A stretch of 63,887 bases of DNA, counting the filler, from Ferroacidibacillus organovorans (GTDB lineage Bacteria > Bacillota > Bacilli > Alicyclobacillales > SLC66): NCBI RefSeq assembly GCF_001642725.1. It is 3 parts of 3 records of this genome, joined end to end, with 100 filler letters (N's around TTAATTAATTAA, not from the genome) between each part and the next. Parts side by side here need not be neighbours in the genome. Positions count along the whole stretch, not along the records: positions 23,280 to 45,697 come from NZ_LSUQ01000041.1; 2 more parts are not named here. The stretch is one strand, 5' to 3'. A program made the translations under genes and the position numbers. Below are positions 8,669 through 46,758 of the stretch, one piece after another (positions within the stretch are counted from its first letter, which is position 1; the number at the start of each line of letters is the position of its first letter). Under the pieces are notes generated by a model that ran no database searches, had not been told where the DNA came from, and saw only the letters and a list, made by a program, of their open reading frames with translations.

Positions 8669-10209
8669 ACGTGAACACTGCCGTCGCGATCGATGACCAC
8701 TCGATCAAGCACTTGACGAAGCGCCAGGCGCAGTGTGCTGTCATCGTACGGTGTCGATGGTGTAAATAAGAGTGCTGCACCTAGTGACACCGTGTCTTCT
8801 GAAGAAGTGGGTGCTTGTTCGATCTTTTTTTCGAGAAGGCGGTTCATCTCACTCTGCAATATCCTTTCTTGATCAATGAGGTTTCGCTGACTCTCCTCAA
8901 TGAGCGCAGTGGGGAAGATACCGCGACGAAACGCTTCCAGGTTGCGTTTTTGTTCTTTTCGATTGATAGAGATTTGCATTTTTAACGCTTGCATGCGCTG
9001 TTCACTTCGATCCACCCCTAAAGAGGCGATTTCCCTACGAGACTGTTGGAACTGGAGCCACCCAGAGTCTTCCTGAAATTTCCTGTTTAACACAGCAAAA
9101 ATCATTTCGCTAAGCGTGTCATAATTTGTGGCGCTGTGGTTGTCACACGCTGCCTTGTTGATCCTTTTTACTTTTGAACACACAACATACTTATAGCGCT
9201 CTCGTTCACGTTTTTTGCGCCCTGTGACAATCATGCTTCCTCCACACGATGCGCATCTCAAGAATCCGGCGAGGAGATTGGCGCTTTGTTTGACACTCTT
9301 GTTGCGCGCTTTGAATTTCATGAGATGTTGCGCGAGATCAAAGCGATCTTGACGAATAATGGGTGGATGCGCGTGAGGGATAACGATCCAATCATCCTCG
9401 CTGCGAAATTGAAGACGCTTTACGGGAAGATCAATTCTGCGAGACTTTTCGATGTCATGCATCGTCGTGCGTTTGTGCGCAATAAGTGTGCCTACGTACA
9501 CTTCGTGACGGAGAATGGCGTTTACGGTTGACGCTTGCCAGGCTGTGTTTTTCTGATACTGGTGCTTGAGTGCTGTGGGAACCTGTCGATGATTGAGTGT
9601 GTTTGCAATCTCTTTTGTTCCTTTTCCAGTAAGGTACATATCAAAAATTTCGCGCACGATAGGCGCTGTTTGTGGATCGGGGACAAGCTTTTTCGCACCG
9701 TCTTTCAAATAACCGTAGGGCGTGATGTTTCCGATGTGGCGTCCGCGGCGGGCGGATTGTCGCAGGCCGCGTTGAATCGCTCTTGACATTTCTTTGCTTT
9801 TATAGGCGGCTAACATTGCGTGAACGGTAAAAATCATTTCAGAATTGCGTCCCTCGATGGCAGAATCATAGCCCTCTTCAATACTGATCAAGCGTATTCC
9901 GTATACCTGTTCAAGTCGCTTCTTTGTGTTGAATGCGTCACTCAAGTCGCGGCTGAATCGGGAGATCGCTGTAAACAAAATGACTTCAAATCGCCCAGCC
10001 CGCGCATCAACGAGCATGCGCTGTACTTCATTTCGATGCGTCATCTCAGTCCCTGAAATACCTGCGTCATTATAAATCAGAGACGGATCTGTTTTGAGTT
10101 GAATGCGTTCGGCGTGCTCTTGGCACGTGGCAATCTGATTGGCAGGGGAGTCGCGTTGGGTGTCTGAGTCTGTCGATACGCGAACATAGATCGCGGCCCT
10201 TTTGATCAT
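8593..10209 (-). CDS. Large serine recombinase (candidate gerE-element integrase/excisase)
   Basis: AIYVRVST catalytic motif, ISRFSRD, PYGY, LLAGFLRCASCG zinc ribbon, coiled coil. Confidence 0.95.
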   Translation of the reverse strand: MIKRAAIYVRVSTDSDTQRDSPANQIATCQEHAERIQLKTDPSLIYNDAGISGTEMTHRNEVQRMLVDARAGRFEVILFTAISRFSRDLSDAFNTKKRLEQVYGIRLISIEEGYDSAIEGRNSEMIFTVHAMLAAYKSKEMSRAIQRGLRQSARRGRHIGNITPYGYLKDGAKKLVPDPQTAPIVREIFDMYLTGKGTKEIANTLNHRQVPTALKHQYQKNTAWQASTVNAILRHEVYVGTLIAHKRTTMHDIEKSRRIDLPVKRLQFRSEDDWIVIPHAHPPIIRQDRFDLAQHLMKFKARNKSVKQSANLLAGFLRCASCGGSMIVTGRKKRERERYKYVVCSKVKRINKAACDNHSATNYDTLSEMIFAVLNRKFQEDSGWLQFQQSRREIASLGVDRSEQRMQALKMQISINRKEQKRNLEAFRRGIFPTALIEESQRNLIDQERILQSEMNRLLEKKIEQAPTSSEDTVSLGAALLFTPSTPYDDSTLRLALRQVLDRVVIDRDGSVHVYFLWSPSSTVCADSPLRLDDDIGE

Positions 10210-10212
10210 GGG

Positions 10213-10440
10213 TCATCGGTCCAGTGAAGCGAGAGGATGTTTTATAACTCCTGTGTCGACCGATTCACAATTTCGTTTTACATCGTCTAAGGCCAGTGCA
10301 AAGATGTGGACCGCCAGTTCTTCAAAAGAAGGCCCGTGATTTCGGAGGTGAAAAGTAATGATTTTTTCGTTTGTGAGTTTGCTTTGTTTCCATTTCACGC
10401 AATCGTCAAGGGAAACATGATTTAATGTCATTGCCGTCAC
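10213..10440 (-). CDS. Small protein upstream of recombinase, candidate recombination directionality factor
   Basis: 75 aa, GGAG RBS before GTG, ends 3 bp before recombinase ATG; function inferred from position only. Confidence 0.5.
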   Translation of the reverse strand: MTAMTLNHVSLDDCVKWKQSKLTNEKIITFHLRNHGPSFEELAVHIFALALDDVKRNCESVDTGVIKHPLASLDR

Positions 10441-10509
10441 GCTCCAGTCTTTATAACGGTATGCGGATGCGGCCTGTCAACTTGTTAAGCGAGTTTCCAT
10501 ATTGACTAA

Positions 10510-10596
10510 CTCACTAATGTCATGAAAAAGCTAAACGTAAAAGGCCGGTCGCAGGCTGTTGTTGAATTGGTCAGACTGGGTGAAATACAGATTTAG
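10510..10596 (+). pseudogene. gerE: 3' fragment of split gerE (LuxR-type mother-cell regulator)
   Basis: Translates (L)TNVMKKLNVKGRSQAVVELVRLGEIQI*, matching the B. subtilis GerE C-terminus ISNAMQKLGVKGRSQAVVELLRMGELEL; in-frame TAA at 10507-10509; syntenic with marR-murI-rph. Confidence 0.9.
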
Positions 10597-10600
10597 TGAG

Positions 10601-10635
10601 ATCCCCCCGTGTTTTTTCACAGGGGGGAATTTTTT
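10601..10635 (+). terminator. gerE terminator
   Basis: TCCCCCCGTG...CACAGGGGGGA stem followed by TTTTTT immediately after the gerE stop. Confidence 0.75.
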
Positions 10636-23179: not shown

Positions 23180-23279
23180 NNNNNNNNNNNNNNNNNNNNN
23201 NNNNNNNNNNNNNNNNNNNNNNNTTAATTAATTAANNNNNNNNNNNNNNNNNNNNNNNNNNNNNNNNNNNNNNNNNNNN
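23180..23279. other. Artificial contig linker
   Basis: N runs flanking TTAATTAATTAA (stops in all six frames). Confidence 0.97.
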
Positions 23280-37723: not shown

Positions 37724-38045
37724 ATGTGCACGTATGGTCAATGTCAAAGGGCGGTTGGACAGTGGGTGCAGTTCTCGACACCGTGGGGGGCTCACCATGG
37801 GATTGTGCGTCAGGTGACACAGCAAGGTGTTTTGATGTCGGTGCCACGTACTTATGCGCCGCAGGGACTTGTGAATGGAATGAATTTCTCAGGCAAATCG
37901 GATGAAGAGCGCTTGGATCTCGCGCTCGCCGCATACGGATATGGTCCGGGGATGGGTGGACGTCCCGGTTACGGGGGTGGCTACGGCGCGCCCGGCTATG
38001 GTTGGTGGGGCGGCGGTTGGTGGTGGTGGTGGTTAGCGTTCGCTA
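37724..38045 (+). pseudogene. 5' part of a Gly/Tyr/Trp-rich spore-coat-like gene, probably interrupted at about 38040
   Basis: AAAGGAGG RBS; MCTYGQC...GYGGGYGAPGYGWWGGGWWWWWLAFA, then an abrupt AT-rich run-on antisense to the recombinase 3' end (ORF formally to 38125). Confidence 0.6.
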
Positions 38046-38053
38046 GTTATCTC

Positions 38054-39520
38054 TTATACACCCCCATGAAAATGAATGAGAATGCGATCTGGATAAACGG
38101 TGATTTCTTTTATGATCGTGCGTAGCAGTTCTTTTCTTTCCTGTACCGTTGCAATCCCCCACGTCGCGCGAAATGAGCCTAGAATGGTTTTAAGCGTGGC
38201 GAGATCCAGGGATTTGGCATTCATTTGTTCCAATGCATGAATCTTCTCGGCGAATAGAGTTTCCTTGCTGCGGAGTTCGTTCAAACGATCTTTAAGGACA
38301 TTTGATTCAATATCACCATTTTCAAATGCATTCATCCATCGATTTTTCCGTGAAGTGATTTTTGATATTTCATTACGTAGAGCATCCATTTCAGCCTGAT
38401 CATCTGATCTTAATGTAAACGTCGACATATCACGACTTAAATCCTGATGATACTGTTCTAAGTGTGTCAAAACAGCATTTTCAAGGTGACTCTCTTTTTG
38501 CCGAGGCATATCACAAAGTCCTGAATGGATTCTCTCGACGCATGTATAATAGCGTCTAGGCTCACTTTCCAATTTATTCTTCTTGTATCGCGTATCTCCT
38601 GACATTGAATAGCCACATTTACCACAGCGCAGGATTCCTGTCAACGAATAGGTGCCCGTACCACTTCGACTCGGCATTGTTTTGCGTTTACTTCTTAGTT
38701 CCTGTGCACGATTAAAATTCTCTAGACTAAGAATTGCTTCGTGATTCCCCTCTTCGATCATTGAATTCGTTTGTCTCCTTCCCTTTAGATCTCTGTATCC
38801 ATAACGCACCATGCCGCAGTAAAGCGGGTTTTGTAGAACATATTTTAGATTGTTCAATGTCCATCTTTTATTGGACGCAAGCTGTGGATGCGTAGGATCA
38901 TTGAGCCACTTCAATATCTTGGGTGTGCCGCTTCCTGCCAGATAGCGATCGTAAATTTCTTTAACGATTGCTGCTTCAGCATGATTGATTTTCAGATTTC
39001 CATTGTTGTAATCATATCCAAAAGGTCGATGACCCCCTGACCATTTCCCTTGCCGAGTCATTTCAATCTGTCCCATTTTAGTGCGTTCAGCGAGATTTTC
39101 ACGTTCCCACTGTGCCATCGCCCCGACGAGTGTGATAAAGAGTCGGCCGATCGCCGTTGTCGTATCATACACTTCTGTGGCGCTCCGAAATTTCGTTTGA
39201 TGGCGATCGAAGTAGTCTAGAAGCGTATGGAGATCAGAAACAGAGCGTGTTAGTCGATCTAATTTATAGACAAGCACAATTTTATGATCAGAATGGTCAG
39301 CTTTTAAATCATTGAGCAAGCGCTTTAACTCAGGCCGATCCATGTTTTTGGCGCTGACGCCTTCTTCGATGTAGCTATCTTGGATGACCCAGTCTTGCGA
39401 TAATGCATAGGCCTTTAACCTCTCACGCTGCGCGTCAATCGAATATCCCTCATCAGCCTGTTCATCCGTCGAAACACGTATATAAATACGCGCAAACCAT
39501 GTTTCGCTCATGGCGATCAC
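38054..39520 (-). CDS. Large serine recombinase (boundary integrase)
   Basis: IYIRVSTDEQ, YKLDRLTRS, AQWERE, PFGY, LTGILRCGKCG. Confidence 0.96.
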   Translation of the reverse strand: MIAMSETWFARIYIRVSTDEQADEGYSIDAQRERLKAYALSQDWVIQDSYIEEGVSAKNMDRPELKRLLNDLKADHSDHKIVLVYKLDRLTRSVSDLHTLLDYFDRHQTKFRSATEVYDTTTAIGRLFITLVGAMAQWERENLAERTKMGQIEMTRQGKWSGGHRPFGYDYNNGNLKINHAEAAIVKEIYDRYLAGSGTPKILKWLNDPTHPQLASNKRWTLNNLKYVLQNPLYCGMVRYGYRDLKGRRQTNSMIEEGNHEAILSLENFNRAQELRSKRKTMPSRSGTGTYSLTGILRCGKCGYSMSGDTRYKKNKLESEPRRYYTCVERIHSGLCDMPRQKESHLENAVLTHLEQYHQDLSRDMSTFTLRSDDQAEMDALRNEISKITSRKNRWMNAFENGDIESNVLKDRLNELRSKETLFAEKIHALEQMNAKSLDLATLKTILGSFRATWGIATVQERKELLRTIIKEITVYPDRILIHFHGGV

Positions 39521-39561
39521 CCTAATTTTGAAGTTGGCCTCTGAAAAATAAATAGGACAGA

Positions 39562-39590
39562 CACAGAAAAAGTGATCGCAGCATACGATA
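39562..39590 (+). promoter_or_regulatory. Sigma-K type promoter
   Basis: CACA (39562-39565) - 16 nt - CATACGATA (39582-39590) fits the B. subtilis sigma-K consensus ACA-N16-CATANNNTA. Confidence 0.65.
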
Positions 39591-39618
39591 CGTTAATGCC
39601 TGAACCTTAGTGGGGAGC

Positions 39619-39786
39619 GTGATCGTGTTGGATAACAATACATGTATATATCTTGTTATCCAGGCGAATTCCCCCTCGGAAGAAGCACTTATGCGTTTCA
39701 ACGAAGAAATTCGCCGCATTATCGAACGCGCCATTCAAGATGGGCGAATTGCTACCCATGATCTTATTGATTCCAAAACGCCGTAG
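39619..39786 (+). CDS. 55-aa protein, candidate recombination directionality factor
   Basis: GGGGAG RBS; MIVLDNNTCIYLVIQANSPSEEALMRFNEEIRRIIERAIQDGRIATHDLIDSKTP; divergent from integrase; below ORF-track cutoff. Confidence 0.6.
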   Translation: MIVLDNNTCIYLVIQANSPSEEALMRFNEEIRRIIERAIQDGRIATHDLIDSKTP

Positions 39787-39932
39787 TTATACTAAAGATT
39801 TATAATTCCGCCAACTACGTTGGACAAGCTTATAAAAAACAATGCCCAAAAGGATTTCCTCTTACCTATCTTAGTGGCTGACGATTTGAGATACGACAGG
39901 AAATCCCTAACTTTACTTGGGCAAAAGTCCAC

Positions 39933-39972
39933 ATAAAAAAGCAGATGCCATGGATGATGATGCGGCATCTGC
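39933..39972 (-). terminator. Terminator downstream of XRE gene
   Basis: GCAGATGCC / GGCATCTGC stem with T tract on the minus strand. Confidence 0.65.
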
Positions 39973-40072
39973 GTGATGAATCTTTTAAAATCGTGATTTC
40001 ATAGGGTGAAACGGGAAGATAACGATAGGTTAAACCTCATACGGGTGTGAAGATCATTCGTGAACGTGTTCA

Positions 40073-40300
40073 TCATGATTCGGATGGGGGCATTTGTTCG
40101 AAACTAATTTTCAGCATGACGTCGAGTGCGGTGGTGATTTTTTCAAGGCTCTCCAAGCTTACATTACCGATTCCACGTTCAATCATACCGACATATCGTT
40201 TTGAAAGTCCTGACGCTTGTGCCAAGGTCTCTTGGCTCATGCGCTGTTTGGTGCGGAGTTGACGAATTCTCATCCCCACTTCTCGACATAAATCACTCAG
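40073..40300 (-). CDS. XRE family helix-turn-helix regulator (possible CTG start)
   Basis: IRQLR...MSQETLA...YVGMIERG..NVSL; GAGGTG RBS 7 nt before CTG at 40300. Confidence 0.88.
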   Translation of the reverse strand: MSDLCREVGMRIRQLRTKQRMSQETLAQASGLSKRYVGMIERGIGNVSLESLEKITTALDVMLKISFEQMPPSES

Positions 40301-40439
40301 ACGGGTTCACCTCGATTTATATGGATGGATCTATGGTAAAAGCTTATCATCTGTCTCTTAAAAATTCATGCATGACGGATAACTATAGTGCATATACCGA
40401 AAATCCTTTGGACACCATGTACGCCAAGGGAGTGAAGGG

Positions 40440-40604
40440 ATGGAGAGGAATCGAATTCGTGTTCGCTCGATTCAATATGTGTACGATCCAAAGGCCGGTC
40501 GTCTGTGGCTGGATGTGTTAGCGCAAGCGCTCTATCGCTCGTGTCAAGATCATAAAATGGATACAAAGCACGAGCCCAACGAGGATGTGAATCCATGCGA
40601 ATGA
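40440..40604 (+). CDS. 54-aa protein coupled to tandem recombinases
   Basis: GGGAG RBS; MERNRIRVRSIQYVYDPKAGRLWLDVLAQALYRSCQDHKMDTKHEPNEDVNPCE; stop overlaps the recombinase start region (ATGA 40601-40604). Confidence 0.6.
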   Translation: MERNRIRVRSIQYVYDPKAGRLWLDVLAQALYRSCQDHKMDTKHEPNEDVNPCE

Positions 40605-42130
40605 CGGTGGCGTATTACCGAAGTTCTCTCGAACAACAGGAAAATTCCGTTCCGATGCAAAAGGACAACGCAAAACTTTATGCACAAAAGCACGGAATGA
40701 CCCTTCAAGATCACTACGACGATGAGGGGAAGTCGGCACGAAAAAAATCAGAGATCGAACGGCCCGCGATGCATCGATTGCGACAGGACATCCGCTCTAA
40801 TTTAATTGGGACGATTATTGTCTATAAACGGGATCGTCTGGCGCGAAGAGCGAGTGAGTACATGGAATTTTATCGTCTGTGCCGCAAATTTGACGTGAAG
40901 ATCATTTTTACGTCTGGAAAGGAATACCCGGTGTTTTACTCACCGTTCGGGGAATTCATTGAACTCATTTACGCGGGAATTATTGAGCGTGAGGCGGAAG
41001 TAATCGTTGAGCGTCTACGTGAAACGCAAATCACGAATTTCGTGAACAAGAAGACGGTGGGAAATCTACCGTATGGCCTGGTGGCGATTGAAGGGAAACA
41101 AGATAAACCGGAGATTCATTTTCAGTCAGACGAGGTAAAGGAAGAGATCAAAGGGATTTATTCGGACTTTCTCCAGTGGTCGACTACGCGAGGGGAGCAA
41201 AAATTCTCTGCCTTTGTTCAGCTGCAAAATGAGAGACATCCGAGACGGGAGCGCTTGGAATCCGAGGAGGAGGAGATAGAATACGATGAAGGAGGCGCTA
41301 AGGAACCAAACGCCAGATGGACCGATACCAATTTGCGTGGTCTTTTGACGAATTCACTCTACATGGGAAAACATCGCAAAACATGGGAGGATCAAATGTA
41401 CGAAGTGGATCGGCCTGAGTGCGCGATCATTTCTCCTGAAGCATGGGAAGCGACGAATCAAGCGATGAAGCCGTTTCTTGCGGTTCAACATGAAACCAAG
41501 AAACGAGAATTTGTTCTTGAGGGATTGATCGTTTGTGAATTTTGCAAACATCCTCTCGTGGGGAGAACATCGTGGCGAAAACAGGAACCGATGGATGGGT
41601 ATTATTGTCCCACCAAAACGTGTCCTGTGCGTATCTCCGCAACGAAATGTGAGGAAAAAATTGATGAAGAAGTCGTGGGGTTTCTGTCCATCCTCCTAAA
41701 GGAGAATGGGGATGCATTGTATCGGGAGGTGATGGCAGAGGAACGCAGGCGAATTAAAGCGGAGATGGAGAAGCTTCAACATCAGCGGACGATTCTACAG
41801 ACGCGTTTAAAGAAGGATGTATCGCAGTATATGCAAACGCGCGTGAGTATGCCTGAGATTTTTCAAACGAAAACGAATCTCGACAATCTCCATCATACGA
41901 TGCACAGACTGGAGGCAGAACTTCGTTCATTGCATGCGTTTCCGCTGGGGACAAAGCGGCGAAACATCCGCATTCAAGATCTAAAGATCGAGCTGAAGCA
42001 AGGGTCGGCCGTGCGTCGGCGAGAACTACTCGCGGATCTCCTTTTGGAAGTGCGGGTCAGCAAAAATACGATCGAGGCTCTTGTGTTTCGCCACCCATTT
42101 CAAAAGGTGGTGTCCCATGTCTCTTCATGA
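40595..42130 (+). CDS. Large serine recombinase (first of tandem pair)
   Basis: VAYYRSS, YKRDRLAR, LPYG, LEGLIVCEFC...YYCPTKTC, coiled coil. Confidence 0.9.
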   Translation: MRMTVAYYRSSLEQQENSVPMQKDNAKLYAQKHGMTLQDHYDDEGKSARKKSEIERPAMHRLRQDIRSNLIGTIIVYKRDRLARRASEYMEFYRLCRKFDVKIIFTSGKEYPVFYSPFGEFIELIYAGIIEREAEVIVERLRETQITNFVNKKTVGNLPYGLVAIEGKQDKPEIHFQSDEVKEEIKGIYSDFLQWSTTRGEQKFSAFVQLQNERHPRRERLESEEEEIEYDEGGAKEPNARWTDTNLRGLLTNSLYMGKHRKTWEDQMYEVDRPECAIISPEAWEATNQAMKPFLAVQHETKKREFVLEGLIVCEFCKHPLVGRTSWRKQEPMDGYYCPTKTCPVRISATKCEEKIDEEVVGFLSILLKENGDALYREVMAEERRRIKAEMEKLQHQRTILQTRLKKDVSQYMQTRVSMPEIFQTKTNLDNLHHTMHRLEAELRSLHAFPLGTKRRNIRIQDLKIELKQGSAVRRRELLADLLLEVRVSKNTIEALVFRHPFQKVVSHVSS

Positions 42131-43643
42131 AATCATGGAACGTTTGAGGCAGCCGGATACGCTTTTGCGTGCCGCGTTTTATGGCCGTCATTCGACCAAG
42201 AATCAAGAAATGATGATGCAAGAGAATACCGCCGAGCGATTTTGCAAGAAGTATGGTTGTGAAATCGTGGAAAAATACCTCGATCCGGATGTATCGGCTA
42301 CGAAAGTGAAAATGACCCAACGCAAAGCGTTGTTGCGGATGATCAATGATGCGAGTGATGGCAAATTTGATGTCATCCTTGTGTACAGTGACAGTCGTTT
42401 GGCGCGTGATCCGATTGAACATGCTCAAATCCGCATCGCTTTGCGGGGCATCCCTGTCTTTCTGTGTGACACCGAAACCTTGTACAATCCCAAGAATGTG
42501 GAAATTTTAACGCAATTGATCCGCGATGGCGTTTCCAAATTTGAAGTGGATCAGACCTCGGAACGAACCCGGGATACGTTTCTTTACATGGTGAAACACG
42601 GTGAAGCGATCAATGGCAGGTTGCCCTACGGGTATGTAAAACGGGAGGGTCGTTTTGTTATTGAATCTTTTCAACAAGCCGAACACATTCGGTCCATTTT
42701 TATGTGGTATTCAAACGGCGACGGATTCTCGGCGATCGCGAAACGCCTGGGGTGGCTCAAAGCGGATCGCGTCACACCAAATAAAGAGCGGGTCAAGTCG
42801 ATTGTCTTGAATCCCTTTTATGCCGGTTATCGTAGCATGGACAAAGTCAAAAAGAAGGCGCGCATGAGCTTTCAACCGCTCGCGCAGTGGATCATGGGTT
42901 CCGATCCTCACATCGAGCCGGTACTTTCGTTTGAAGAGTGGAGAACGTGCTACGATCTGTATGAGAAAAAACAGAAAAGGGAAATCGCGCCGAAGACTTT
43001 TAAGACACCGTTTCTATTGGCGGGGCTTCTCGTCTGTGGAGATTGCAGGAAAAGAGGGATGGAAAACTTTTTGCGCGGCCAAAATCGCCAAACACGCTCA
43101 ACATTTGGAAGGACAGGATCTCGGTATTATGAATGTCCGGAATGCAGACTCTGCATGGACATGGGGGCATTGCATCAAATTCTGATCGATGACGTTTTTC
43201 ATCCGTGGGTCTCGAAAAATGAGCGGCAGTGGGAGACGGCGGTCGAACGGGTGAAAGAAAAGATCGATCACGAGAAAGCGGCGTTGGCGGCGGCGATCGA
43301 ACATGCAGAAATCAAGATCGTAAAGGATCAATTGGAGCACGAGGTTGCGCGCGATCACCAGAAAGGTCTCGATAATGCCAGTGAACTGTGGGGTGTGATG
43401 GACGAATACTGCCGTGTGCTCAAGGAACAGATGGACAAAACGCGAGAAGAGCAGGATGAATTAAAGCAGATGCAGCGACGCCTAAACGCGTGGGTCACCG
43501 ATGAGAGCGCACTGCGAGAGGTGCGCTTGGATCTCTTGAACGAACAAGATTTCCGCAGGCTGACGCTTGCGTTGATTACCGAGGTAGTGGCGACATCGGT
43601 TGAGGATCAAACGATTGAACTGGATGTCGTAGGTCGATGGTAG
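42117..43643 (+). CDS. Large serine recombinase (second of tandem pair)
   Basis: AAFYGRHST, SRLARD, LPYGY, LNPFYAG, LLAGLLVCGDC...YECPEC; overlaps upstream gene by 14 nt. Confidence 0.9.
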   Translation: MSLHEIMERLRQPDTLLRAAFYGRHSTKNQEMMMQENTAERFCKKYGCEIVEKYLDPDVSATKVKMTQRKALLRMINDASDGKFDVILVYSDSRLARDPIEHAQIRIALRGIPVFLCDTETLYNPKNVEILTQLIRDGVSKFEVDQTSERTRDTFLYMVKHGEAINGRLPYGYVKREGRFVIESFQQAEHIRSIFMWYSNGDGFSAIAKRLGWLKADRVTPNKERVKSIVLNPFYAGYRSMDKVKKKARMSFQPLAQWIMGSDPHIEPVLSFEEWRTCYDLYEKKQKREIAPKTFKTPFLLAGLLVCGDCRKRGMENFLRGQNRQTRSTFGRTGSRYYECPECRLCMDMGALHQILIDDVFHPWVSKNERQWETAVERVKEKIDHEKAALAAAIEHAEIKIVKDQLEHEVARDHQKGLDNASELWGVMDEYCRVLKEQMDKTREEQDELKQMQRRLNAWVTDESALREVRLDLLNEQDFRRLTLALITEVVATSVEDQTIELDVVGRW

Positions 43644-43858
43644 GGTATATTCTGCGATGATGTTGAATCGGGGGGCAGAATGAGAGTGGGGGTGTTCTGA
43701 GAATAGATCGTTTGTAAATGACGAGAGGTTTTCGTGTCATTTTAATGAAAATGGAGAGAATACGCCGCCATTTCTTCTTCAGCTTTGTTGCCTTGGAGAA
43801 CGGCAATTCATACTAGTGTAACGATGAATAGCCATGCAGCACTCAGGTTGCACCGCTA

Positions 43859-43884
43859 TTGCAGATAAGCACCCGATAGTTGAA
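43859..43884 (-). repeat. Candidate recombination site, downstream end of nuclease cassette
   Basis: Minus strand TTCAACTAT-CGGGTGCT-TATCTGCAA; same TT-N7-CGGG-N11-AA geometry as 45310-45335. Confidence 0.65.
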
Positions 43885-43886
43885 TA

Positions 43887-43912
43887 ACAGCAGGGGCAAT
43901 TTGCTCTTGCTG
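43887..43912 (-). terminator. Hairpin closing the nuclease cassette
   Basis: ACAGCAAGAGCAA / TTGCCCCTGCTGT stem on the minus strand directly abutting the 26-bp site. Confidence 0.65.
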
Positions 43913-43996
43913 TGTAGCTGAAAAATTACGGTTTGGTCACCACCAACATTATTTCGATGGCATTAATTGTAATTTCCTTACATACGAAACCCTCAG

Positions 43997-45208
43997 TCAG
44001 TCTGACAACAAAATCGGTAAGCGACGATCACGTGACATTAAACGAAGTACGCTCATATCCAAGACAAACGCAGACTTGTCCTGTATAACAGTTTCATGAA
44101 GCAGACCTTTTTCTAAAGCCAAGTCCATAATTCGTTTTCCACCGACAGCCTTCGTGATTGTTGCTCGACTGACTGGACGATTATTTCTCTTATCAACTAA
44201 TAAGCCTTCATCATCAGCATATTGATTCAGTATTATGTGTCCAGCATGTCGGAGGGCTCGTTTGAACGTAACCTCAGCAATTCTTTCCTGAGCCTCCTCA
44301 TCTTTGGTCATCATCGCTTTGACTTTGTTTTCAACCCTAGGCGATCTCTGTTTTTGAAGAATTCCAATAAATTTTTCAGCGAACTCATCTAAGTCGAACA
44401 CGGTCTTGATGTCGGCAATCGTTAAATACACGAAACGGTTAAACCTCGAAAAGAACACCCCTATTTTGCCTATCTCAACGGGGAAATCTCTATCGAACTT
44501 CGATAGTATGTAGTAACCGATAAGTTGCCGCATGTGCTCAGCTTGATAACCTAAACGTCGTACCGTCTTTATATCGACCAACATGGTATCAATAACAAAA
44601 TCCGCATCTGCTCCACCGACCAACGCGGACATGTCCCCGAATGTTGGATTGTACAATATGCGATTTTCCTTCTTAAAAAAAGCTTCAACATCCATCGTTT
44701 TGTCTGCAATTTGAGACAAATCATGCACTTCACGGGAGTCTACATCGTAACCGTTTTGACGGACGTATCCTGACCTGTAGTAAGCCTCCATGTAGCCCAA
44801 AAATACACAAGCCTCATACAGCCCGCGTTCATCCACATTGTCTCCCCGACTGTACTGCCTTCTGATTTCCCTGCTTATATTGTACTTTTCTGTTATCTCA
44901 GGTAATGAATCTTCCATTCCAAATTGTGTGAGCCCCAATATAAGACGACGCATCGCCTGGTCCGCGACCACGACGGGTTCTTCATAGTCTTGATTGATTC
45001 GTTGCAAATAAGCACGTAGCCAGTAATCATAAGCCATGCCGACGTTACCCGCGTTTGCACCTTGAACCAAATCTGCTACAGGGGGTATACCTTTTGGAAA
45101 GGGGGCACCATCATCATTCAGGGTTTTACATAGACCTTTGAAATTCGGCAGCGTCGAGAACAAAGATTTAACTTCGGCGTTATCACTTAACATGCTTGTC
45201 AACGACAA
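43997..45208 (-). CDS. Hypothetical protein with PD-(D/E)XK nuclease-like motif
   Basis: GGADADFVIDTMLVDIKT...QLIGY; GGAGG RBS before TTG 45208; AT-rich. Confidence 0.7.
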   Translation of the reverse strand: MSLTSMLSDNAEVKSLFSTLPNFKGLCKTLNDDGAPFPKGIPPVADLVQGANAGNVGMAYDYWLRAYLQRINQDYEEPVVVADQAMRRLILGLTQFGMEDSLPEITEKYNISREIRRQYSRGDNVDERGLYEACVFLGYMEAYYRSGYVRQNGYDVDSREVHDLSQIADKTMDVEAFFKKENRILYNPTFGDMSALVGGADADFVIDTMLVDIKTVRRLGYQAEHMRQLIGYYILSKFDRDFPVEIGKIGVFFSRFNRFVYLTIADIKTVFDLDEFAEKFIGILQKQRSPRVENKVKAMMTKDEEAQERIAEVTFKRALRHAGHIILNQYADDEGLLVDKRNNRPVSRATITKAVGGKRIMDLALEKGLLHETVIQDKSAFVLDMSVLRLMSRDRRLPILLSD

Positions 45209-45309
45209 TTTGTCCACCTCCAATATTCCGTTAACAATATAACAACGTGTCTAGGATATCATAACTGACCCACCAGAACCTCGATTTCCCGTCAAAAAAC
45301 GTATTCATC

Positions 45310-45335
45310 TTCAGCTAACCTGCCCGAATGCGCAA
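45310..45335 (-). repeat. Candidate recombination site, upstream end of nuclease cassette
   Basis: Minus strand TTGCGCATT-CGGGCAGG-TTAGCTGAA. Confidence 0.65.
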
Positions 45336-45697
45336 GAGCCACCGTGGTGACAATCATATACGGGTTAAATGATGGTGATTTTGCAATTGCTCAACCAATG
45401 GCTGAAAACCAACGGGGACAAATTTGCCGATGTTTGTGTATCTAAAATTACAGTTGGTCGCGTATTTCAGAACGGACCGTTTACAGCTCGCGTGACAAAC
45501 TGAAATCCTTTCGTGTCTTGCAACTGGCGCTGCAACTCGAAACGAAGAAGGAACACACGATAGAATCTATATTCGGCACTTTTCTGAAGAATCCCTTTGC
45601 AAGCAAGAGACGAAAGGGCGAGTGTCGTTTTGGTACGGATTTTTTCATTTATCGATTTTGGACGGGACATGAGGATTTTAAGGAACATGGACAGGCC

Positions 45698-45797
45698 NNN
45701 NNNNNNNNNNNNNNNNNNNNNNNNNNNNNNNNNNNNNNNNNTTAATTAATTAANNNNNNNNNNNNNNNNNNNNNNNNNNNNNNNNNNNNNNNNNNNN
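45698..45797. other. Artificial contig linker
   Basis: N runs flanking TTAATTAATTAA. Confidence 0.97.
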
Positions 45798-45852: not shown

Positions 45853-45897
45853 ACGGCGGTGCTCGATTCGAGAGAATCGGGTGACGCCGTGCTTTTT
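45853..45897 (+). terminator. Terminator of a gene upstream of contig start
   Basis: CACGGCG...CGCCGTG stem with inner CTCGATTC/GAATCGGG pairing, then TTTTT. Confidence 0.65.
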
Positions 45898-46014
45898 AAT
45901 GTCCGCGCGTACTCGGAGCGCGCGGGTGCGTCAGCGGGTGTCTTCTATCCTGGGAAACGCGCACATGGTATGATCCTACTAGAAAGTTTGTCAGGTGGGG
46001 AGTATAGGAAATCC

Positions 46015-46758
46015 ATGGAATATCTTTCATTCAGCCGCTTATCCTTGCTTGAGACGTGCGGACTGCGCTTTTACTTTGAGTATGTCGAGAAGCGAAGCCC
46101 GGTCGATCCGGTACCGCTGCACCACGCGAAGTTTGGCACACTATTGCACAGTCTCTATGAACAACACGCGAATTCTGCAGGTCATGATTCTTATGAAGTG
46201 TTGAAAAAACGATATGATGTAGACTTCCCCAAACTCGTATCGCTTTTTCCTGATCGCGACGCGGCGGTCCAGTTTTACAAGAAAGGGCTCGCGGCGATTC
46301 AGCGCTTTAGCCGCTATCTTGTCAAGGATGTGGTGGCATCGGAAAAGGAGTTTCTGATTGAGACATCGACTGGGGTGCCCCCTCTCAAAGGGTTTATCGA
46401 TCGTCTCATCTATTCTGAAGATCACGGGTATCTCGTCGCCGATTTGAAGACGGGAAAGGCATTCTCTGGCGGTGACCGAAAAAAACGCCGACAACTGGTC
46501 GTCTACTCCATCGCGTGTGAATCCGAGTACGGGACGCCTGCTGACAGCGGATACTTTGACTTTGTCGTACAGGGGAATCGCGCATGGGTTGACATTGCTG
46601 AGGAAGATCGCGCGGAGGTTCGCGCGTGGGTGAGAGAAAAGTGGCATGAGATTGAGATGGAGCGCTTTGACGCGAAGTATTCGCGTGCGTTTTGTTCCGC
46701 ATACTGCCCGTTTCGAAGTGAGTGTGACACATTTTTACAGCATCATCGCGCGGGATAA
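46015..46758 (+). CDS. RecB/Cas4-like PD-(D/E)XK nuclease with 1+3 Cys arrangement
   Basis: LSFSRL...C, GTLLH, GFIDRL, DLKTG, QLVVY, CSAYCPFRSEC. Confidence 0.88.
   Translation: MEYLSFSRLSLLETCGLRFYFEYVEKRSPVDPVPLHHAKFGTLLHSLYEQHANSAGHDSYEVLKKRYDVDFPKLVSLFPDRDAAVQFYKKGLAAIQRFSRYLVKDVVASEKEFLIETSTGVPPLKGFIDRLIYSEDHGYLVADLKTGKAFSGGDRKKRRQLVVYSIACESEYGTPADSGYFDFVVQGNRAWVDIAEEDRAEVRAWVREKWHEIEMERFDAKYSRAFCSAYCPFRSECDTFLQHHRAG

Follow-up and report, generated by a model that had tools for sequence, protein, structure and literature searches.

Integrons are the textbook route for stockpiling and shuffling single genes. Two other described kinds of element are also close to the locus treated here: the staphylococcal cassette chromosome (SCC), in which excision would turn the hybrid junctions at left and right back into two palindromic sites, and the repetitive extragenic palindromic and bacterial interspersed mosaic repeats (REP/BIME), which are targets of IS110-family elements. 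The integron site attC is a known target of group IIC-attC introns and IS1111-attC elements (PMC3001079; PMC11187229), and Cury et al. 2016 (PMC4889954) report no complete integron in any Firmicutes genome, only some clusters of attC sites lacking an integrase (CALINs). Here we describe a putative nuclease gene of Ferroacidibacillus organovorans (order Alicyclobacillales; assembly GCF_001642725.1) that lies between two copies, U1 and U2, of a repeat of about 110 nt, called the unit below. The window, by which we mean the whole stretch of DNA that was analysed (63,887 nt), consists of contigs C40, C41 (positions 23280-45697) and C51 joined by runs of N, and a window coordinate is the C41 coordinate plus 23279. 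The window's own genome is referred to as G000 and that of a sister species in the same genus as G001.

Two elements of the description are solid, namely the cassette slot that holds the nuclease gene and the repeat family that bounds it. On this basis we suggest, with about an even chance of being right, that the gene belongs, as one cassette, to a repeat-punctuated array, integron-like in its working but no integron. The cassette idea is supported because U1 and U2 bracket different genes in different places, because their edges recur as breakpoints, and because the nuclease gene is found in one of 64 genomes of the order, with no homologue in the other 63. For the exchange itself site-specific recombination is the most likely mechanism, at about even odds against homologous recombination mediated by the repeats. 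A circular intermediate and the acting enzyme are candidates for now, the enzymes being an Xer-like tyrosine recombinase, confined to unit-bearing genomes, and a pair of serine recombinases beside U1.

The slot is defined by comparison with two other pairs of flanks. In G001 the flanks correspond to window positions 43646-43870 on the left (83%) and 45320-45480 on the right (89%), and enclose a slot of 2121 nt with two genes, of the GNAT and transglutaminase-like kinds, and an internal unit. The paralogous flanks on contig C25 of G000, which is the true neighbour of the C41 end (121-nt overlap; G001 is continuous across the join), enclose an APH gene, a unit and a HAD-like gene between a U1-type and a U2-type unit. 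The U1-type copy is chimeric, its match to the window U1 being limited to the right 50 nt, and it is accompanied by a 134-nt remnant of the 3′ end of ssr2, the recombinase gene next to U1. An earlier note had proposed that the nuclease gene is a cassette bounded by two 26-bp sites, A and B; matches to C25 break off 12 nt into site B and set in again 9 nt into site A. The insert is indeed bounded at both sites, since the same units hold different cargo in the window, G001 and C25, and the search for other cargo which that note recommended found it in the latter two. Its guess that further cassettes may lie past the contig break was also right: C25 carries three units together with small genes that follow one another on the same strand. 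Assembled contigs of public sequencing runs add at least five further continuations that leave U1 at 43868-43886 (runs X5, X6 and the probable source run, X1) and one X6 contig that joins U2 at 45320 from other DNA. A contig of run X8 joins 43874 to 45320, skipping 1445 nt, a join that may reflect either an empty site or different cargo. In run X5 the word depth is 45 for the ssr2 contig and 3-5.6 for the nuclease contigs, a difference to which we give no weight.

The same two edges recur at other loci of the order. Breakpoints were mapped by comparing all collected loci and placing the ends of shared segments in unit coordinates, where they cluster at the two unit edges, termed A and B, with one end at the unit centre. 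At the A edge, a metallophosphatase cassette is common to genome G026 and contig C83 of G000 (85.7% over 903 nt), with homology that extends from the upstream unit, at its CAG edge, to the ...GGGCAG of the gene's own downstream half unit; the comparison of genome G025 with locus L064 gives the same A-edge pattern. At the B edge, loci L064 and L069 share 1236 nt at 98.9% identity and cease to match at the position equivalent to 43870/43871 of the window, and the segments shared by C83 and L066 and by C9 and L066 end there too. The gene moves together with its own downstream site as a module in the metallophosphatase cassette and in G025 versus L064; the downstream unit stays and the gene changes in the window versus G001 and C25, in L064 versus L069 and in C83 versus L066. 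Since the ends fall at the A edge as well as at the B edge, both gene-plus-unit and gene-only modules have moved. We suggest that small accessory genes would be gained, lost and replaced by recombination at the two unit edges, and that the insertion of the nuclease gene would have taken place between U1, at its B edge, and U2, at its A edge. The features of the locus are collected in Table 1.

Table 1. Features of the nuclease locus, in window coordinates
Feature	Coordinates	Strand	Remarks
Unit U1	43778..43887	+	nhmmer C41 20499-20608, E 2.5e-13, model positions 1-110; right end includes site B
Unit U2	45310..45407	+	nhmmer C41 22031-22128, E 3.6e-10; covariance model R1 44.7 bits; left end is site A
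Site B	43859..43884	-	spans the B edge of U1; conserved ...GCAGATAAGC joins cassette-specific ACCCGATAGTTGAA
Site A	45310..45335	-	spans the A edge of U2
Swappable segment (cassette), 1449 bp	43871..45319	-	3′ arm, possible hairpin, nuclease gene, 5′ untranslated region, 5′ arm
Left homology breakpoint, B edge	43870..43871	.	left side common to G001 C72 and G000 C25, right side differs
Right homology breakpoint, A edge	45319..45320	.	just before plus-strand CTGCCCG
Cargo gene, putative PD-(D/E)xK-type nuclease with C-terminal extension	43997..45223	-	open reading frame of 408 aa, from translation
ssr2, large serine recombinase	42081..43643	+	Pfam Resolvase + Recombinase; ends 135 nt before U1
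ssr1, large serine recombinase	40595..42130	+	overlaps ssr2 by 50 nt
ssrA, third large serine recombinase	38054..39520	-	inside the 5.2-kb segment missing from G001

The units were found by fuzzy searches followed by an iterated nhmmer profile, and the E values of the family reach 1e-20. Read antiparallel to the genes, the consensus begins with a weakly conserved arm, CTGCCCG, a GCGCAA-type block and about 18 variable bases, passes through a palindromic centre, TG.ATAATCAT.CA, and after about 18 further variable bases ends with GCTATTGCAGAT (a TTGCAG-type block), GCACCCG and a second arm. In gene orientation each cassette ends in ...CGGGCAG, and many units have a second CGGG edge (AAC-GGGTGC) directly past the stop codon of the preceding gene. 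The conserved blocks measure 12-24 nt, identity averages 55% over the columns, and conservation is lower in the outer arms than in the core. The covariance model R1 scores 62.5 bits on U1 (C41 20493-20614); the central block of U2 is partly deleted relative to G001. Rfam has no family for the units of three unit-rich contigs, where only group II intron domains were matched.

Sites A and B are thus no private 26-bp pair, as the earlier note had taken them to be, and are parts of the longer repeat. Both strings lie exactly where they were reported, site A reading TTGCGCATTCGGGCAGGTTAGCTGAA and site B TTCAACTATCGGGTGCTTATCTGCAA on the minus strand. Their direct identity is 11/26 and their identity as an inverted pair is 16/26, which contains the 7/9 and 6/9 cross-arm matches once claimed for them; both counts were reproduced. 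Among 147,272 position pairs from the two gene flanks this is the sole one that passes the note's thresholds together with a shared 4-bp core. An inverted identity of 16/26 is reached by 11 of these pairs, where 12.7 are expected binomially and 16.8 are found on average in shuffles, and the exact 9-8-9 scheme, a geometry chosen post hoc, arises in 28 of 300 (9%) dinucleotide shuffles of the flanks. The site pair alone is therefore at chance level and has no significance. The likeness of this geometry to tyrosine-recombinase sites, seen by the earlier note, is conjecture. The scan for TT-N7-CGGG-N11-AA that had been suggested as a check gave 6 occurrences in the window against 2.33 expected, a number reached by 2 of 100 shuffles; counts in a short-pattern search of this genome for coreless minimal sites are at chance.

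These pair-level statistics are what one would expect if the resemblance of the two strings were accidental and the nuclease gene an ordinary resident of the chromosome. The sites are nevertheless real despite the chance-level pair, because both are ends of repeat copies, U1 and U2, whose matches to the family profile have the E values given in Table 1, and the cargo differs between orthologous flanks around a gene of such restricted occurrence. We consider chance resemblance refuted by the family matches and the differing cargo between shared flanks, and its remaining probability is negligible. Of the shared core that was claimed for the two sites, one part stands: in gene orientation CGGG is conserved at both unit edges (...TTCGGGCAG and ...AACGGGTGC). 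A crossover inside CGGG at the B edge misfits G001 and C25, and it is better placed just outside these four bases, because they are not conserved there.

About 31 units are present in G000 (nhmmer E < 0.005), clustered on 12 contigs. A sequence-only covariance model, built from 23 units, was used to scan 64 genomes of the order and finds units in 45 of them, with up to 54 scored copies per genome; 17 of the 18 genomes in the window's family and 27 of the 45 in the other family have them. Outside the order, one of 140 sampled genomes of the class gave a single weak match. The clearest layout is seen in the complete genome G026, where 30 kb are taken up by small opposite-strand genes, 19 units that alternate with them and three interspersed insertion sequences. 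There the units start 4-30 nt past a stop codon and 40-100 nt ahead of the next start, and the genes encode DinB, glyoxalase, metallo-beta-lactamase fold and metallophosphatase proteins and several DUFs. Across loci the genes between units are of the GNAT, APH, glyoxalase, DinB, NUDIX, isochorismatase, metallophosphatase and similar types, and the orientation rule holds equally in smaller arrays and for single units. Co-oriented arrays of accessory genes in which reading frame and site alternate, by which integrons are recognised, are therefore present in the order.

Many of the G026 units (L078-L081, C1 3.493-3.523 Mb) are half units covering model positions 1 to about 60-73, in which the CTGCCCG block and the centre are kept, the B half is gone and the stop codon of the gene abuts the centre. 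In two families of the order a half unit of the same form stands 3′ of the metallophosphatase gene. One unit-bearing array, L014 (G000 C83 185-7272), is 98.7-99.1% identical to L015 (G001 C23), and chromosomal synteny between the two genomes around the window is at 80-84%; the far greater likeness of the array suggests recent transfer of the array as a whole.

In several respects these arrays resemble sedentary integrons and CALINs. Both consist of small, mostly co-oriented accessory genes with an imperfectly palindromic site of about 60-140 nt within a few bases of each gene, both carry cargo such as GNAT, glyoxalase and DinB genes that turns over rapidly between relatives, and at least one module of a gene with its own downstream site is bounded at matching points of successive sites. 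Insertion of a group II intron and of an IS110-family element at the sites is a further likeness: B edges are occupied by a group II intron (C86), an IS110-family element (G025) and a DDE insertion sequence (G025). These insertions may be seen as a parallel with attC and not as proof. The intron, recognised by two Rfam domain hits and a reverse transcriptase/maturase reading frame of 676 aa, stands directly after the GCACCCG of a unit in L017 (C86, 5205-7582, minus strand).

Unlike integrons, the units come without IntI, without RYYYAAC/GTTRRRY boxes and without a conserved hairpin; they have long conserved blocks of primary sequence and two recombining edges per site, and no attI or Pc platform was found for them. 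The earlier statement that the sites do not resemble attC holds for the whole family, which has CTGCCCG, GCACCCG and the central block in place of the R boxes. Published descriptions of integron-like arrays in this group were not found in full text, supplements and subscription journals lying outside that search.

The breakpoints can also be read in another way. The units may be selfish or regulatory intergenic repeats (REP/BIME-like, like miniature inverted-repeat transposable elements (MITEs), or acting as promoter, terminator or operator), and the genes between them may be swapped by homologous or short-homology recombination, with no dedicated recombinase and no circle. We hold this explanation to be rather unlikely. 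It accounts for the conservation of primary-sequence blocks and not of a fold, and for breakpoints at both edge blocks, A and B, and a single one in the central block; however, blocks of 12-24 nt with a mean column identity of 55% make the units a poor substrate for RecA, and the switch nucleotide is identical in the 98.9% pair (L064/L069) and in the window versus G001 and C25. The chimeric U1 of C25, the solitary units beside core genes and the arrays without any recombinase nearby are natural under this explanation, and dozens of intergenic copies of about 100 nt per genome, placed after genes, are what REP/BIME repeats and MITEs share with the units, which agree with them in being multi-copy. 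In contrast to such repeats, the units are conserved across the order, have a fixed orientation to the genes and are bound to arrays of one class of small accessory genes; neither a stable hairpin nor, at their edges, a target-site duplication was seen, and it is the core and not the outer arms that is better conserved. The centre, TG.ATAATCAT.CA, resembles a palindromic protein-binding site or a -10-like element, as a regulatory repeat would have it. The central block was considered as a -10 element and dropped, and we claim no promoter at the unit centre because the hexamer varies at its first position. A scan of 43500-45697 for promoters and terminators called nothing at the units.

Several results, given in this paragraph and in those on recombinases below, weigh against the cassette system that we suggest. 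The breakpoints at both edges and once at the centre are predicted likewise by homologous recombination between conserved blocks. In the assembled contigs of the public runs neither an excised circle nor an empty site was seen. In G025 a core gene is followed by a solitary unit; the corresponding G026 locus has no unit but 12.8 kb of other genes. RNAalifold on the units gives 0 pairs and hence no conserved secondary structure, and the folding energy of single units equals that of shuffles (z about 0, 15 units). The left and right halves of the same unit pair at 3.39 versus 2.78 for crossed halves (p = 0.049), an effect driven by 2 of 23 units. In favour of the system, at family level, the outer arms are weakly inverted repeats of each other, and the inner blocks likewise: outer arms match at 5.44/12 versus 4.82 in shuffles (z 11.6) and inner arms at 5.57/12 versus 4.75 (z 15.8), in a test that is not very specific because one of its two controls (inner-left versus outer-right) also scores high (z 10.3). 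The complementarity of swapped arms, on which the earlier note had built its circle, is not significant when the arms of individual cassettes are compared (own arms 6.9 versus mismatched arms 6.2 of 14; p = 0.076, 10 cassettes), and the argument holds only as a family-level tendency.

The recombinase genes beside U1 suggest a third explanation, in which U1 is the end of a serine-recombinase mobile element and its B edge the attachment junction; the various sequences past 43870 would then be insertion targets and not products of turnover. This we regard as improbable. The last ~380 nt of ssr2 recur with U1 as remnants in C25, in G001 and on a third contig of the source run, and G001 is without the 5.2-kb segment, 38052-43266, that carries three serine recombinase genes in the window. 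Serine recombinase genes lie at element ends, and the homology of C56 and C59 stops at the stop codon. But the window and G001 represent one chromosomal locus, with the same gene on the left (a Gly/Trp-rich reading frame with no Pfam family) and with U2, a 1.3-kb stretch and cas9 on the right, and turnover between U1 and U2 is still needed because the cargo differs at this shared locus. Three serine recombinase loci do have downstream units in the same orientation, yet the other 16 of the 19 in this genome are without a unit within 3 kb, and both the A-edge breakpoints and the arrays far from serine recombinases are left unexplained.

With respect to our own suggestion, serine recombinases fare no better as the general enzyme. 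Such a role was rejected on three counts: of the serine recombinase loci in this genome 3 of 19 have a unit within 3 kb, serine recombinases are present in 15 of the 19 unit-less genomes, and in the 47 kb covered around the G026 array neither end has a recombinase gene. The pair ssr1 and ssr2 recalls the CcrA/CcrB arrangement of composite SCC arrays, in which two overlapping large serine recombinase genes likewise lie beside cassette DNA. However, both proteins fall outside these families, with 51-75 bits against CcrB (cut-off 900; ssr2 75.2, ssr1 51.1) and 44-55 bits against CcrA (cut-off 700; ssr1 43.8), and ssr2 is below the cut-off for XisF as well; the cassettes here are single genes of 0.5-2 kb, and units occur far from any serine recombinase gene.

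An Xer-like tyrosine recombinase, as far as its sequence and distribution go, may be a better lead to the enzyme than the serine recombinases. Its score is 201.8 bits with the XerC model (cut-off 335) and 94.9 bits with that of the integron integrase, TIGR02249 (cut-off 265). Close homologues occur in 19 of 45 unit-bearing and in 0 of 19 unit-less genomes (Fisher one-sided p 2.8e-4, the relatives being non-independent), and truncated copies adjoin the arrays on C83, C61 and C2. A full-length copy of the gene lies in G026 at C1:4365756-4366355. Of 10 independent loci with this gene, 5 have downstream of it a half unit or a coreless ...TTCAGGTAAC-GGGCAG site, the form that the earlier note predicted for a cassette junction. 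Close homologues are missing from 26 of the 45 unit-bearing genomes, including G016 with its 46 units, and the co-occurrence is confounded because unit count tracks genome size (Spearman 0.66). As to IntI, none of 18 matches in a whole-genome TIGR02249 search passes, the best reaching 89.5 bits against the cut-off of 265.

Two observations concern the left side of the slot and its paralogue. The window (38044-43266), G001 (C72 18440-18541, L013) and C25 (10880) all change partners at the 8-base string GCGTTCGC, which may be another recombination junction. On C25 an rve-type transposase gene (9718-10605, L005) stands directly upstream of the ssr2 3′ remnant and its U1-type unit, and may have truncated this platform.

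The cargo gene is a candidate for a single-gene defence protein, as judged from profile matches. Its translation has a D...D-I-K motif (...DADFVID...VDIK) and matches the PADLOC profiles PDC-S61 (4.1e-10) and RTasPDDEXK (2.6e-7), over residues 57-274 and 160-271, as well as phrog_34041 (1.6e-17); no Pfam family (E <= 0.01) and no NCBIfam family was matched. The protein thus shares with the PD-(D/E)xK defence nucleases PDC-S61 and the PDDEXK protein associated with defence-associated reverse transcriptases (DRT) both profile matches and the D...D-x-K motif, and differs from them by an extra C-terminal part of about 130 residues. The database copy begins 5 residues later than the reading frame in Table 1. 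Its closest relatives are three metagenome proteins with 65-76% identity, and the remainder are at 42% or below. Pattern scans for loci of homologues, whose flanks would have been of interest, confirmed none. The GC content of the cassette is 0.41-0.46, compared with 0.518 for the window. The terminator that had been claimed after the gene was not called by the scan of 43500-45697, although the sequence shows a short GC hairpin near 43890-43915.

Some neighbouring features lie outside the cassette. A type II CRISPR-Cas operon (cas9 of 1117 aa, cas1, cas2) is found 1.4 kb beyond U2 (C25 1532-6128, L005), between the window cassette and the second U1-type unit (C25 11146), and cas9 of G001 has the same place. 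A further PD-(D/E)xK or Cas4-like reading frame (PDDEXK_1, 4.9e-27) at 45859-46758 of the window, plus strand, belongs to the unrelated next contig. The N runs, 23180-23279 and 45698-45797, hold 12-base islands, and the contigs across them are not true neighbours.

Taken further, and tentatively, since we think it somewhat less probable than not, an order without integrons may have a gene-capture system of its own: single-gene cassettes exchanged by site-specific recombination at CGGG edges, through a recombinase other than IntI (the Xer-like protein or the serine pair on the platform unit), that arose independently of integrons. If the exchange is enzymatic, integrons would be joined by a second cassette system of independent standing, with its own new recombination site, and Xer-like or large serine recombinases would possibly have been put to a new use. 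Such a system would also explain how defence and detoxification genes are gained, and would provide new pairs of site and enzyme for genome engineering. Even if the exchange proceeds by homologous recombination, the unit remains a previously undescribed element by which the accessory-gene islands of these bacteria are structured throughout the order.

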